NCBI GenBank assembly: GCA_963764625.1
Contig: CAVXTH010000009.1
Coordinates: 960,001 to 1,024,000 of the forward strand
DNA from: Candidatus Krumholzibacteriota bacterium
Lineage (GTDB): Bacteria; Krumholzibacteriota; Krumholzibacteriia; JAJRXK01
DNA length: 64,000 nucleotides
Reading direction: 5' to 3'
The translations under genes were made by a program, and so were the position numbers. This document shows, in pieces, positions 138-4,605 of this stretch. The notes beneath the pieces were generated by a model. That model was not told the DNA's origin and did no database searches. It saw only the letters and a program-made list of their open reading frames with translations. Position 1 is the stretch's first letter; each line of letters starts with the position of its first letter.

Positions 138-1043
138 ATGCAGATCGTGGTCGTAGGCTCGGTGGCTTTGGATACGGTGGAGACTCCGTGGGGCAAAGCC
201 GAGAACGCTCTAGGGGGAAGCGCGACCTTCTTCTCGCTCGCCGCGGCGCGCGAGGCCGAAGTGGGTCTGGTAGCGGTGGTGGGAGAGGACTTGCCCCAAA
301 GCGCCCGCGAGCTCCTCAGAAGCAAGGGCATCGATATGCGCGGCCTCCAGGTCGAAAAGGGAGAGTGCTTCCGTTGGGGAGGGCGCTACCAAGACGACAT
401 CAACAAGCGCGACACGCTCTTCACGCATCTGAACGTATTCGAGCACTTTCATCCCACCCTGCCCGAGGCCTATCTCGGGGTCGAATTGCTGTTCCTCGCC
501 AACATCCATCCCTCCTTGCAATTGGAAGTGCTCGAGCAGGCCACGAATCCGCGGCTTACGGCGGTAGACACCATGAATCTGTGGATCGAGACCGCGCGCG
601 AGGATCTGATCGAAGTGCTCAAGAGGGTGGATCTTGTCTTCTTGAACGACGAGGAGGTGCGTTTGTTGAGTGGGAAGCACTCCCTGGTGGCCGCGGTGCG
701 CGCGATTCAGGAGCTGGGCCCAAAGCGGGTGGTGGTCAAGAAGGGTGAGCACGGCGCGCTACTCTTCGACGGGGACCGGCGCTTTGCCTTGCCGGCATTG
801 GTCCTGGACGAGGTCAAGGACCCGACCGGCGCCGGGGACACTTTCGCCGGCGGCTTCCTGGGCCATCTCGCCCAGCTGAAGGACTTCCGGCACGACGACC
901 TGAGGGAGGCGATGATCAAGGGAACGGTGCTCGCGAGCTTCGCGGCCCAGGACTTCAGCGTGCGGGGCTTGGAAAAGCTCACCGCAGCCGCGGTGGACCA
1001 GCGGCGCGCGGAGTTGCGCCAGCTCTCAGCCTGGCCGAAGTAA
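138..1043 (+). CDS. PfkB/ribokinase-family carbohydrate kinase
   Basis: N-terminal VVVGSVALD, GGSA, and C-terminal PfkB signature DPTGAGDTFAGG. ATG 138 follows GGGGGA. Confidence 0.9.
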   Translation: MQIVVVGSVALDTVETPWGKAENALGGSATFFSLAAAREAEVGLVAVVGEDLPQSARELLRSKGIDMRGLQVEKGECFRWGGRYQDDINKRDTLFTHLNVFEHFHPTLPEAYLGVELLFLANIHPSLQLEVLEQATNPRLTAVDTMNLWIETAREDLIEVLKRVDLVFLNDEEVRLLSGKHSLVAAVRAIQELGPKRVVVKKGEHGALLFDGDRRFALPALVLDEVKDPTGAGDTFAGGFLGHLAQLKDFRHDDLREAMIKGTVLASFAAQDFSVRGLEKLTAAAVDQRRAELRQLSAWPK

Positions 1044-1177
1044 ATTCCTCAATCTTTTGTGAATTCACGGCTTACTGAGTTTCAGTCTTGGTGGACGGCG
1101 GGCCCATGTGCTAGAGTCGTAGCACGACGAATCCCGCCAGAGCAGCTTGCACGGGCAGAAAGAACTCAGGTGGATCG

Positions 1178-1927
1178 ATGGCACTCGATGCGAAGAAAGT
1201 GACGGAGGTGGAACGCGAGCTCACGCGAATTCGCAACGTGAGCTATGCGTTCCTGGTTCTCGATGTTCGGCGTGAGATCGAGCAGGTCGACATCCTGAGC
1301 GATACGCAGCGTCCGCCGCGCCCGATCGTTCGCGACGTCGAAGCGGTCCTCCGTCGGCATGGCGTGGAAGTTGATCATCGCAAGATCGGCGTCGTACAGC
1401 TGAACCCCCCTCAAAGCTCCTCACCATTCCCGGATCGGACAACCGCCACGCGCAGGCCACGGGCTTCCCGTCCGCGAATTCGGCTATCCGCGGTTCATTC
1501 CACCACCAGTGGCGGAAACTTCATCGCGGAGGTCGAGCTGAGCCTCGGGGTCTTCGAGGGCCTTCCCGGCCGCTGCGAAGGGCCCGCCCTGGATGAGGAC
1601 GCCTGCGTGGCCCTCGTCGCCTGCGCGGCCGTCCAAGCGGTGCGCAACTTGCTGAAACCCCAGTATGAGATCCAGCTGAGGACCACCAGAGTGGCCTCGG
1701 TGGCGGGGGCTTCCCTGGTCATCGTCGCTCTGGACTTCGGCTTCAATCGCCAAATCCAGCGTCTGGCCGGCACCTGCTGGGAGCGCGGATCTTTGTATGA
1801 AGCAACGGTTTATGCCTGTCTTGATGCCCTGAACCGGCCCCTGGGCCGGGCGGAGTTTCAGGACCTGATGGTGCAGGACGAAGGCGCAACGCCCGAGCAG
1901 CTCTCGTGGCGGGCCGCCTCGGCCTGA
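1178..1927 (+). CDS. Conserved hypothetical protein, two alpha/beta domains joined by a Pro/Arg linker
   Basis: Codon-typical 249-aa ORF. Motif IVRDVEAVL...DHRKIGVVQL and C-terminal ACLDALNR resemble an uncharacterised family I recall beside HD-GYP genes (recollection, not a search). Confidence 0.75.
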   Translation: MALDAKKVTEVERELTRIRNVSYAFLVLDVRREIEQVDILSDTQRPPRPIVRDVEAVLRRHGVEVDHRKIGVVQLNPPQSSSPFPDRTTATRRPRASRPRIRLSAVHSTTSGGNFIAEVELSLGVFEGLPGRCEGPALDEDACVALVACAAVQAVRNLLKPQYEIQLRTTRVASVAGASLVIVALDFGFNRQIQRLAGTCWERGSLYEATVYACLDALNRPLGRAEFQDLMVQDEGATPEQLSWRAASA

Positions 1928-2092
1928 TGGCAAGTCGCGAGCTATGTCGCGGTCTCTTTCTGGCCGGTTGAGGGGAGTTGTCTGCAGAAAAAACCCGAGC
2001 GGAGCAAAACATTCCCGAGCGCGTAGCGAAGCCTCACTGCCGCCCCCTTAGCGGAGCATGGCGGCAAATCCAATCCGATGTGAGGTGGGAAC

Positions 2093-2128
2093 ATGTTCTG
2101 GGTCCTCGGTAGCAAGGTGAAGTGGTAG
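2093..2128 (+). CDS. Putative 11-aa micropeptide MFWVLGSKVKW
   Basis: ATG TTC TGG GTC CTC GGT AGC AAG GTG AAG TGG TAG; Shine-Dalgarno GAGGTG at 2082-2087; ends 29 nt upstream of the HD-GYP gene. Confidence 0.55.
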   Translation: MFWVLGSKVKW

Positions 2129-2157
2129 TCTAACTCCTCTCAGCCGGCCTTGATTCC

Positions 2158-3510
2158 ATGCGAGTACGCCGAAAATCAATCGCGATCCTCTATGTCCTCG
2201 CCCTCACCCTGGCCGCAATCGCCCTGGGTGCCTGGGTATTCCAGCGCTATCCGATCCTCTCGCACCAGTGGCTGCCGATTCTGTGCTTCAGCGCCTTCCT
2301 GATCGGAGTCGACTTCTTCGAGGTCAAGACTTCGGCCGGGGGGGATTGGCTTGCCTCCTCGACCATCGACATTGCCGTCATCGCCACCCTGGGTCCCGCA
2401 GCGGCGATGCTGATGGAAGGGGCCAGCCTTTTCGTGGGCGACGGCCTGATCAAGCGCCGCTCCCCCTTGAAGGTGCTCTTCAACGTCGTGATGATGACCT
2501 TCTCCGTCGGGGTCGCAGGCGTCGTGTTTCATTCGCTTCCCTGGAGCGGAGTGGACAATCTGTCCTCGCCCTTGTTTCTGATTCCCGCCCTGGTGGCTCA
2601 CATGGTGTTTTCGGGCGTGAACATGACGCTCACCAGCACGGTCCTCGTGTTGAACGAAGGCCGCACCTGGAATCAGGTTTGGCGTGGTGATTACGCGTGG
2701 CACTTTCTGAGCGGTCTTCTTGCCGCTCCTTTGAGCGCATTTCTCATCTTCTCCTACGAGTACGCGGGACTCTGGTCGCTGCTTCTCTTCGGTCTTCCCC
2801 TCTTCATCATCTGGCAGAGCCACAAGCTCTTCGAGGAGATGAAGGAGGCCCACATCAACACCGTGGCCGCGCTCACCACCGCGCTGGAAGCGGACGAGCC
2901 CTATACCCACGGTCATAGCTACCGGGTGGCCAAGTACGCGGTCCAGATCGGACGGAGGATGGGAATGGGTCCAGAGGAACTCGAAGAGCTCGAGTACGCC
3001 GGACTGCTGCACGACATCGGCAAGATCGCCATCACCAACGACATCGTCTGCAAGCCGGCGCGACTGACGAAGGACGAATTCGACATCCTCGCCTCCCATC
3101 CGGCGATCGGAGGCGAGATCGTCTCGCAGATGAAGTTCCTCAAGGGCGCCGCCGACCTGGTGCGCCACCACCACGAGCGCCCCGATGGTCTGGGCTATCC
3201 CGATGGGCTGCGCAGTGGAGAAAACAAGCTGGGGAGCAGAATCTTGAATTGCTGCGACGCCATCGACGCCATGACTTCCAATCGTCCTTACCGGGCCGCG
3301 CTGACCCTCGAGCAGTGCATGGACGAGTTGCGCCGCTTCAAGGGGAGTCAATTCGCAGAGGACGTGGTCGACGCCATCGAGGAGATGTACCAAGAAGACA
3401 CCTTCAAGGTCATCGCGCAGGCCGACGGGACGGCTCTGGAGATCCAGAGGATCCTCCACGACGCGGCGTCGCGCGAGACGGAGGTACCGTCCACTGTTCC
3501 AGTGGGCTGA
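2158..3510 (+). CDS. Membrane-bound HD-GYP cyclic dinucleotide phosphodiesterase with a multi-TM N-terminal sensor
   Basis: About 7 hydrophobic helices, then PYTHGHSYRV, LHDIGK, HHERPDGLGYPDGL and DAMTSNRPYR motifs. Confidence 0.92.
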   Translation: MRVRRKSIAILYVLALTLAAIALGAWVFQRYPILSHQWLPILCFSAFLIGVDFFEVKTSAGGDWLASSTIDIAVIATLGPAAAMLMEGASLFVGDGLIKRRSPLKVLFNVVMMTFSVGVAGVVFHSLPWSGVDNLSSPLFLIPALVAHMVFSGVNMTLTSTVLVLNEGRTWNQVWRGDYAWHFLSGLLAAPLSAFLIFSYEYAGLWSLLLFGLPLFIIWQSHKLFEEMKEAHINTVAALTTALEADEPYTHGHSYRVAKYAVQIGRRMGMGPEELEELEYAGLLHDIGKIAITNDIVCKPARLTKDEFDILASHPAIGGEIVSQMKFLKGAADLVRHHHERPDGLGYPDGLRSGENKLGSRILNCCDAIDAMTSNRPYRAALTLEQCMDELRRFKGSQFAEDVVDAIEEMYQEDTFKVIAQADGTALEIQRILHDAASRETEVPSTVPVG

Positions 3511-3561
3511 GGCCTTCCGCGGCGGGTTTCGCGCTTCCCCGTCTTTTCCTGACGGCTCTCT

Positions 3562-3590
3562 TTGACAGCACTGTGGCCTGGCCCTAGCAT
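3562..3590 (+). promoter_or_regulatory. sigma70-type promoter of purM (probably leaderless)
   Basis: TTGACA (3562-3567), 17 bp, TAGCAT (3585-3590); ATG 7 nt downstream, no SD. Confidence 0.7.
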
Positions 3591-3597
3591 TCCCGCC

Positions 3598-4605
3598 ATG
3601 AAATACCGCGAATCCGGCGTCGACATCGATGCTGCCAGCCAAGCCCTTTCTCGTGCACGCGCCGCCATCGCCTCCACTTGGAGCTCTGCGGTCGCATCCG
3701 ACCTGGGTTCCTTCGGGGGACTCTACCGCCAGCCCGATGGGTCCCTGCTCGTCTCATCCATCGACGGAGTGGGCACCAAGCTCAAAGTCGCTCTTGCGGC
3801 TGGGCGCGTGGGCGGCGTGGGCGAGGACCTCGTGAACCACTGCGTCAACGACATCCTCGTCCAGGGCGCGACGCCTCTGTTCTTCCTGGACTACTTCGGA
3901 ACGGGGCGATTGCAGGGCGAGACCTTCGTCTCGGTGGTGGAAGGACTCGCGAAGGCCTGCAAGGAGAACGGGTGTGCGCTCATCGGCGGAGAGACGGCGG
4001 AAATGCCCGGACTCTACCACGGTGAAGATTTCGATCTGGCCGGTTGTATCGTGGGAAGAGTGGAGGAGAAGGACCTCATCACCCCGGCCTCGGTGAAGGA
4101 GGGAATGAGAGTCTACGCCTGGCGCTCCAGCGGTCTGCACACGAATGGCTATAGCCTGGCGCGCAGAGTTCTGCTGGAGAGTGAGTCTCCGCTTCCGCTG
4201 AATAGTGACCCGGGGAAGCTGGGGACCACGCTCGCTGAGGCACTGCTCGCGGTGCACCGCAGCTACCTCGCTCAGGTGACGCAGCTACGCCAGCATCACG
4301 CCGTCGCCGCACTGGCCCACATCACCGGCGGCGGACTGTTGGACAACATTCCCCGCGTCCTCCCCAAGCACCTCGCGGTGGAGCTCGAAGTGGACTCGTG
4401 GCAAATCCCTCCGATCTTCGAGCTCCTGAGAGAGCGGGGGGCCATCGAACGAGACGAGATGCGTAGGGTCTTCAATCTGGGGCTGGGAATGGTCCTGGTC
4501 TGTGAGGAGATCTCGTCTGAGCTCGCGCGAAATCTGAGTGAGCCGCCGCTCGCCATCGGGCGCGTGGTCGCGCGCACGAAGGAAACGGCCGTGCGCTTCC
4601 GCTAG
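3598..4605 (+). CDS. purM: Phosphoribosylformylglycinamidine cyclo-ligase (AIR synthetase)
   Basis: YRESGVDI, DGVGTKLK, GGETAEMPG, SSGLHTNGYSLAR, HITGGG motifs. Confidence 0.96.
   Translation: MKYRESGVDIDAASQALSRARAAIASTWSSAVASDLGSFGGLYRQPDGSLLVSSIDGVGTKLKVALAAGRVGGVGEDLVNHCVNDILVQGATPLFFLDYFGTGRLQGETFVSVVEGLAKACKENGCALIGGETAEMPGLYHGEDFDLAGCIVGRVEEKDLITPASVKEGMRVYAWRSSGLHTNGYSLARRVLLESESPLPLNSDPGKLGTTLAEALLAVHRSYLAQVTQLRQHHAVAALAHITGGGLLDNIPRVLPKHLAVELEVDSWQIPPIFELLRERGAIERDEMRRVFNLGLGMVLVCEEISSELARNLSEPPLAIGRVVARTKETAVRFR

Follow-up and report, generated by a model that had tools for sequence, protein, structure and literature searches.

How is a membrane phosphodiesterase gene of cyclic di-GMP (c-di-GMP) signalling brought to translation when no Shine-Dalgarno (SD) sequence stands ahead of its start codon, and what is an 11-codon open reading frame (ORF) doing directly upstream of it? 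These questions are raised by a locus of a Candidatus Krumholzibacteriota bacterium (assembly GCA_963764625.1, contig CAVXTH010000009.1, positions 960,001 to 1,024,000 of the forward strand). We call this whole stretch of 64,000 nucleotides the window and give all coordinates as window positions. The small ORF, hereafter the micro-ORF, encodes MFWVLGSKVKW and lies in the 230-nt gap between the gene of a 249-aa conserved hypothetical protein and a gene combining a MASE9 with an HD-GYP domain. A first-pass annotation of the same DNA had proposed that these three form a peptide-signalling system. The reading that we favour, with a probability of about one half, is that a structured leader RNA of ~190 nt, with the micro-ORF as its translated core, controls expression of the MASE9-HD-GYP gene.

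Results

A conserved micro-ORF upstream of the HD-GYP gene

The first-pass annotation had described the micro-ORF with its strong SD (GAGGTG), its Lys-Trp end and its distance of 29 nt to the HD-GYP gene, and all of these hold at the coordinates given in Table 1. GAGGTG lies 5 nt ahead of the ATG, is complementary to the 3' end of the genome's own 16S ribosomal RNA (GGAUCACCUCCUU) and occupies columns that are invariant in 30 aligned sequences. The TAG stop (2126–2128) is followed after 29 nt by the HD-GYP ATG at 2158; inspection by eye found no SD-like purine run ahead of that ATG, in agreement with the annotation. Another ORF of 20 aa, in a different frame (2058–2120), was rejected: it is not kept in the genus, since its ATG is lost in locus L004.

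The micro-ORF recurs in relatives. We examined 80 related loci, of which 57 hold both the 249-aa gene and the HD-GYP gene, and in 37 of these 57 an SD-led ORF of 11–26 codons, with Trp as its last or next-to-last residue, stands at the same place. The 37 comprise 32 loci from a screen for SD and terminal Trp, L071 from the covariance model described below, L024, counted because the start of its micro-ORF is visible ahead of a run of Ns, and three GWM forms. The remaining 20 loci have gaps of 8–303 nt and no SD-led ORF ending in Trp. Both a small ORF at the equivalent position and its ending in Gly, Lys or Arg, then Trp had thus been correctly anticipated for relatives. In the window's own family (f1) the micro-ORF is found in 8/8 loci, as MFWVLGSKVKW, MFWVLGSKIRW or forms of 12–19 aa ending in IKW or VYW. 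Family f2 has it in 25/25 copies, each of exactly 14 codons (examples: MLDWLLGLFSKWEW), and family f6 in 9 of 10 genomes (examples: MFKFIIDLFFGDLLLTKTWW); three loci in metagenome-assembled genomes labelled Eisenbacteria encode 20 aa ending in GKSGWM. Peptides of 19–26 aa are reached only in f6 and in the Eisenbacteria-labelled genomes, the length being 11 aa in the window's genus and 14 aa in f2. One of the eight f1 loci (L005/L024, genome G004 of the same genus) has a run of Ns that begins in the micro-ORF and, in this assembly, replaces the sequence for the N-terminal half of the HD-GYP protein.

The substitutions have the character of coding constraint. Within the genus, the micro-ORF differs by a synonymous change and by V>I and K>R. 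Mean entropy across the 23 unique f2 sequences is 0.64 at the first codon position, 0.55 at the second and 1.06 at the third, which thus varies most. Residue 11 of the f2 peptide is Lys or Arg, encoded by AAG, AAA, CGG or AGG, residues 4 and 12 are Trp, Phe or Tyr through conservative TGG/TTC/TAC swaps, and residues 13 and 14 are invariably Glu and Trp; the spacing from SD to ATG is 5–8 nt in 25/25 copies. Between families only the C-terminal pattern is shared, with lengths ranging from 11 to 26 aa. The f2 micro-ORFs stop at TAG (15) or TAA (8) and never at TGA, a codon at which 62% of 1540 long ORFs from the window's genome terminate, as do 10 of the 16 among them that end in Trp, in what is a crude background that includes some shadow ORFs. 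Across families, every copy with an ATG or GTG start stops at TAG or TAA. The single TGA stop belongs to a doubtful TTG-start ORF in L063. Because it is conserved across relatives, the micro-ORF is not a chance occurrence; judged by these comparisons, it is a real, conserved coding unit under constraint at the amino-acid level.

A Latescibacterota-labelled record of family f8 (L044/L128) has a GTG-led ORF of 8 codons, ending in LEW and TAG, just past the stop of the 249-aa gene. It has no SD and no counterpart of the closing helix described next, and may be either a remnant of the element or a coincidence.

A predicted RNA fold around the micro-ORF

In both the minimum free energy (MFE) fold and the centroid fold, the window leader is closed by a long-range helix, P1, which is 19 bp long and brackets the micro-ORF (Table 1). 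In each of 32 loci we matched the 170 nt preceding the SD with the 70 nt past the stop and took the best helix; a P1 of 10–22 bp was recovered in 32/32. Its 5' strand lies 106–134 nt before the micro-ORF ATG in these loci, except for one alternative pick in L043, and its 3' strand begins 3–24 nt past the stop in all of them. From one lineage to another the sequences of the helix are unrelated. P1 scores 37.1 on average, compared with 22.4 (standard deviation 3.3) for 160 shuffles, and in 31 of the 32 loci it exceeds all five shuffles of the same locus.

Covariation within f2 agrees with this fold. In A3, a MAFFT alignment of 21 f2 leaders that was not fitted to any structure, 94.4% of P1 cells are paired and 5 of 12 P1 pairs change on both sides, while the structure as a whole is 85.4% paired, against 31–44% when partner columns are slid. 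The model-fitted alignment A4, which leans towards the structure and includes five weak rows (four on the reverse strand), has compensatory changes in 11/12 P1 pairs. The hairpin P2 is paired in 88.6% of its A3 cells, with 2 of 5 pairs altered on both sides, and f2 leaders hold an additional small hairpin, P3. RNAalifold applied to A2, a mixed-family MAFFT alignment, returned fragments only, because the families are misaligned in it. The micro-ORF SD is predicted to be sequestered in the folds of one f1, one f2 and one f6 sequence, the anti-SD segment pairing, depending on the leader, with the SD or with the spacer between SD and ATG. This anti-SD helix encloses P2 and P3 and is 83.8% paired in A3.

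A covariance model, R1, built from f2 sequences alone and weak outside f2, matches the window leader at 1958–2152 (25.3 bits, E 8.6e-4), its sole match in the 3.57-Mb genome. Rfam 15, including the c-di-GMP-I and c-di-GMP-II riboswitches, found nothing at E <= 1 between window positions 900 and 3700, and on 12 related loci it gave three unrelated weak matches, none of them at the element. Nucleotide identity of the leader is 78% to a congener (flanking genes 68–74%) and 69% to a confamilial genome (flanking genes 60–70%), so that it is conserved on a par with the flanking coding DNA. Taken from these alignments, a covarying RNA fold surrounds the micro-ORF, under constraint at the RNA level beyond that of coding.

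A terminator past P1 was rejected as a general feature because the tails there are U-rich in only ~8/32 loci, and neither an alternative pairing nor a consistent terminator was found at the leaders; for the f2 spacer between P1 and the HD-GYP start, no conserved fold was established. A consensus promoter scan called none ahead of the f6 leaders. By eye, all six f6 loci showing that stretch (L020, L105–L108 and L110) have a TTGACA ~30–37 nt before the 5' strand of P1, with a poor -10 element; if it is real, the f6 leader would start at P1. No TTGAC was found ahead of P1 in f1 or f2.

Linkage to the MASE9-HD-GYP gene

The 450-aa product of the downstream gene matches MASE9 (PF20972) over residues 68–208 with 38.8 bits (cut-off 24.3; E 1.2e-9) and HD_5/HD with E 1.7e-29 (PF13487, 103.2 bits), and its translation holds the HD...HHERPDGLGYP motifs. 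By architecture it is a MASE9-HD-GYP phosphodiesterase, with catalysis predicted.

Orthologs of this protein (E <= 1e-50) are encoded in 114 of the 151 genomes of a phylum sample and R1 matches in 33, one in each except for two in G030. The 61 f2 genomes, a related and non-independent set, include 30 with the element and 28 with an HD-GYP ortholog; 28 have both and none has the ortholog alone. In each of those 28 the element is adjacent to the HD-GYP gene, co-oriented with it and upstream of it, and in the two genomes with the element alone it lies at a contig end. The element is found in 0/16 loci where the 249-aa gene is directly followed by purM and no HD-GYP gene is present. The tie between the micro-ORF and the membrane HD-GYP gene, already asserted in the first-pass annotation, is thereby borne out; on these counts the two are linked, and in f2 they are gained and lost together.

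The second R1 match of G030 is a partial element (C8:94193-94293) that lies where a contig ends and immediately precedes another HD-GYP copy (L102; C8:92709-94049) with one in-frame TGA. It may reflect a duplication of the leader and gene as a module, or an assembly or binning artefact.

Outside the families with the element, an SD-led ORF ending in Trp was found in 0/17 newly sampled orthologous loci of f4, f5, f7, f8 and f9. In 10 of 13 loci of f4, f7 and f9 (L114–L126) we found instead the motif TGGCAY-N5-NTGC, ~110–200 nt before the first aligned HD-GYP residue, which we take to fit the sigma-54 -24/-12 consensus. The motif is absent from 7 sampled loci of f5, f6 and f8 and from the window leader. 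With a sigma-54-type motif in place of the element in f4, f7 and f9, the upstream region would be an exchangeable control module, and the HD-GYP gene appears, from this distribution, to have swapped control regions between lineages.

The 249-aa protein and the flanking genes

In the AF2 model of the 249-aa protein (pLDDT 81.3), a disordered linker joins an N-terminal alpha/beta domain to a C-terminal domain of the LeuA allosteric type. The top Foldseek matches of the model are the regulatory domain of Mycobacterium tuberculosis LeuA (3fig_A and relatives; E 2e-5 over 132 columns). The profile PF08502 (LeuA_dimer) is matched by 2 of 15 homologs (best E 4.7e-6) and not by the window protein itself, one atlas cluster bears the LeuA_dimer name, and a profile of the 249-aa family found nothing among PDB sequences. 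Going by the model, the C-terminal half of the protein is a LeuA-type allosteric, LeuA_dimer-like, domain.

Homologs of the protein occur in 41/41 genomes searched, and at 16 loci its gene directly precedes purM, without an HD-GYP gene or a micro-ORF. Since it is also present without the HD-GYP gene, the protein is not a specific partner of it, and the three-part system that had been proposed to include it is not supported. In L007 (G006) an in-frame stop interrupts the sequence that tblastn aligns with the 249-aa gene.

The nearest related loci have 81–82% identity in the 249-aa protein. Immediately 3' of its gene is a terminator-like hairpin, within the genus constant in its stem and variable in its loop; the strain variants at 1941, 1943 and 1944, from two DNA runs, all fall within that loop. 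The block had been placed between pfkB and purM, and Pfam matches confirm both neighbours; the order pfkB, 249-aa gene, HD-GYP gene, purM is maintained across the class, and an HTH_8 protein is a further neighbour. Directly before purM, at 3562–3590, is a sigma-70-like promoter match (TTGACA, 17 nt, TAGCAT), on account of which purM may be transcribed on its own. The best DNA holders of window 1000–3700 are salt-marsh metagenomes (shares 0.57 and 0.53), with contigs 90–99% alike, so the organism or close strains of it probably live there.

Table 1. Coordinates of the leader element and of its surroundings in the window
Feature	Position	Strand	Basis or remark
Micro-ORF MFWVLGSKVKW, 11 codons + TAG	2093–2128	+	sequence; conserved in relatives
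SD of micro-ORF	2080–2087 (GAGGTG at 2082–2087)	+	invariant columns; 16S complementarity
Whole structured leader RNA, ~190 nt	1958–2152	+	match of covariance model R1
P1 5' strand, long-range closing helix	1962–1980	+	pairs with 2131–2149 in MFE and centroid folds
P1 3' strand	2131–2149	+	starts 2 nt past micro-ORF stop, ends 8 nt before HD-GYP ATG
AGCGRAGC motif, three copies	1997–2005 (GAGCGGAGC), 2025–2032, 2050–2057 (P2 loop)	+	sequence
Anti-SD CCUCAC	2032–2037	+	pairs with GUGAGG 2080–2085 in MFE and centroid folds
P2 hairpin	2038–2066	+	stem 2038–2044 with 2060–2066; loop holds AGCGGAGC motif
MASE9 + HD-GYP c-di-GMP phosphodiesterase gene, 450 aa, without own SD	2158–3510	+	Pfam MASE9, HD_5, HD
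Gene of 249-aa conserved hypothetical protein	1178–1927	+	no Pfam match
Terminator-like hairpin directly 3' of 249-aa gene stop	1934–1953	+	scan: 7 pairs, tail CTCTTTCTGG
PfkB-family kinase gene	138–1043		Pfam; upstream flank of block
AIRS/purM gene	3598–4605		Pfam; downstream flank of block

Discussion

A reasonable model of how the element would work starts from a resting fold in which P1 clamps the leader and the anti-SD pairs with the SD of the micro-ORF. A signal would free the SD, ribosomes would then translate all 11 codons, up to the Trp and stop that lie 2 nt short of the 3' strand of P1, and a ribosome ending the micro-ORF would unwind P1 and expose the SD-less HD-GYP start. Translation of the phosphodiesterase would thus be coupled to that of the micro-ORF, as suggested by the end of the P1 3' strand only 8 nt before that start. 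The geometry throughout f1, where the micro-ORF ends 2–18 nt before the P1 3' strand and this strand 8–30 nt before an SD-less HD-GYP start, likewise points to translational coupling. The conserved ending in Lys or Arg and then Trp, together with stops confined to UAG and UAA, suggests that the dwell of the ribosome at the end of the ORF is tuned, candidate controls being the supply of Trp-tRNA, release by release factor 1 (RF1) and an exit-tunnel ligand. We infer the translation of the micro-ORF, the coupling and its direction, and the signal. A cis-regulatory leader is favoured by the covarying fold with its sequestered SD, by the position of P1 right after the stop, by peptides of no more than 11–14 aa in two families and by HD-GYP orthologs, in other families, that do without the ORF.

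Several observations weigh against this model. The HD-GYP start of f2 lies ~90–230 nt beyond P1, so that P1 cannot occlude its ribosome site there. The P1 3' strand of f2 mostly begins 9–18 nt past the stop, which is probably beyond the leading edge of a terminating ribosome, and this makes direct unwinding of P1 doubtful in that family. In f6 a short hairpin just past P1, seen by eye, may hide the HD-GYP SD instead. The anti-SD helix has 0/5 pairs that change on both sides in A3; because it varies little, its support comes from thermodynamics and from a few register shifts with compensating changes noticed by eye. The U-rich tails past P1 in ~8/32 loci could end a separate transcript, and RNA contigs of the metatranscriptomes X17 and X20 cover parts of the 249-aa and HD-GYP genes and not the leader. 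Finally, conservation in f2 spans the whole 14-aa peptide and not its C-terminus alone, which would also fit a peptide with a function of its own.

A functional micropeptide acting in trans on the MASE9 domain, as an intramembrane or interfacial ligand or as a small subunit, with the RNA fold only gating or stabilising its own mRNA, is the strongest competitor, possible although clearly less probable than a translated cis-acting leader. It would account for the purifying selection on amino acids along the entire f2 peptide, for a hydrophobic and aromatic composition ending in a basic residue and Trp, and for the strict co-occurrence with the MASE9-HD-GYP gene; the 90–230 nt that separate the f2 ORF from the start of the HD-GYP gene, in some cases with a U-rich tail past P1, are compatible with a separate unit. 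A membrane-spanning segment needs ~18 aa or more, however, and the peptides of the window (11 aa) and of f2 (14 aa) are too short for one, for which reason a small transmembrane modulator of the MgrB type was rejected. Moreover, families differ strongly in the sequence and length of the peptide, against 40–70% identity in the MASE9-HD-GYP protein, orthologous phosphodiesterases lack the ORF in f4, f5, f7, f8 and f9 (all 17 newly sampled loci; 20 of the 57 loci overall), and a peptide acting in trans does not need a P1 3' strand placed just past its stop and, in f1, beside the HD-GYP start. The passages on MASE9 in Galperin and Chou (10.1101/2021.11.05.467447) suggest a ligand that binds within the membrane and report none for any MASE9 domain. 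A secreted pheromone system of the agr, Com, Rgg or Phr kind was rejected too: no exporter, protease or modifying gene is adjacent, and peptides of 11–20 aa have no leader part. The analogy with agr, Com and Rgg systems drawn in the first-pass annotation is not supported, as no export or processing gene adjoins the element.

Cis and trans action could be combined. A translational sensor, in which the Trp-terminated nascent micropeptide, read only as far as UAG or UAA, stalls or releases the ribosome on a cellular cue, opens the RNA clamp and sets the phosphodiesterase level, and in which the released peptide may also be the first known genetically encoded MASE9 ligand, is a rather unlikely extension of the cis-regulatory leader.

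Less likely again is a riboregulator that binds a ligand or a protein, with the AGCGRAGC motifs and the P2 loop as its sensor and the micro-ORF as its expression platform. The motif is present three times in 190 nt, compared with a genome background of ~0.07 per kb (two variants together), its columns are nearly invariant across families in the alignments, and the SD is predicted to be sequestered in a helix around P2 and P3. The repeats are SD-like (GGAG) and contain GGA; they may be ribosome standby sites or the binding site of some factor. On the other side, the sequence suggests no candidate ligand, Rfam offers nothing at E <= 1, the conservation of the peptide at the amino-acid level is left unexplained, and the obvious GGA-binding protein is missing: the CsrA profile PF02599 has no match in the 96.4%-complete genome, and a leader or sponge bound by CsrA/Rsm was rejected on this ground despite the GGA repeats.

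A type I toxin-antitoxin-like or stand-alone small-RNA locus, in which the mRNA of a hydrophobic peptide is kept inert by 5'-3' pairing and sequestration of the SD, is highly improbable, since these shared traits are set against a single copy, where such loci are typically multi-copy or variable, a synteny fixed across three families of a phylum, a constant coupling to one gene and peptides of 11–14 aa that are shorter than any type I toxin we know of.

RNA-level control of c-di-GMP enzymes is, to our knowledge, little known beyond c-di-GMP riboswitches and CsrA. The element described here is sharply defined and testable, in a phylum without cultured members, and it is invisible in current annotation because gene callers skip ORFs this small. 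A leader that ties c-di-GMP turnover to the traffic of ribosomes would, if true, be new for c-di-GMP signalling, and so would a micropeptide that partners MASE9.

Known systems resemble the element in different respects. The mRNAs of hok- and tisB-type type I toxins encode a hydrophobic peptide, sequester its SD and pair 5' with 3' over a long range, as the element is predicted to do; the element differs by its fixed synteny, its single copy, its much shorter peptide and its tie to one downstream gene. Small membrane proteins that modulate sensors, of the MgrB-PhoQ type, have in common with it a small hydrophobic product linked to a signalling system. Small membrane-associated proteins under c-di-GMP riboswitches are reported from Clostridioides difficile (PMC13724677), adding a link to c-di-GMP; unlike in either case, the element's peptide of 11–20 aa mostly falls short of the length of a transmembrane helix and lies within a covarying RNA fold, and any binding by it is putative. 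MASE9-HD-GYP phosphodiesterases with the architecture of the downstream gene have been described by Galperin and Chou (10.1101/2021.11.05.467447), whose passages on MASE9 make no mention of an upstream micro-ORF or leader. Our literature search, with most subscription journals outside its scope, yielded no account of a leader or micro-ORF preceding HD-GYP genes.

The closest likeness is to control regions with leader peptides or upstream ORFs, such as trpL, tnaC and ermCL-type leaders. Compared with these, the element, which has no sequence or Rfam match, differs in that its target is a c-di-GMP phosphodiesterase and not a biosynthetic, catabolic or resistance gene, in having no demonstrable terminator/antiterminator pair, in an ORF enclosed by a long-range helix, and in a Trp codon at the last or penultimate position, with UAG or UAA as the only stops. 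In common with them it has a short SD-led ORF inside a folded leader, just upstream of the gene and co-oriented with it, a sequence that shares only C-terminal residues between lineages, Trp codons at the end of the ORF and, by analogy, an expected remodelling of a helix by the position of the ribosome. By this analogy the element is similar to a leader-peptide control region, yet one that fits no described family.

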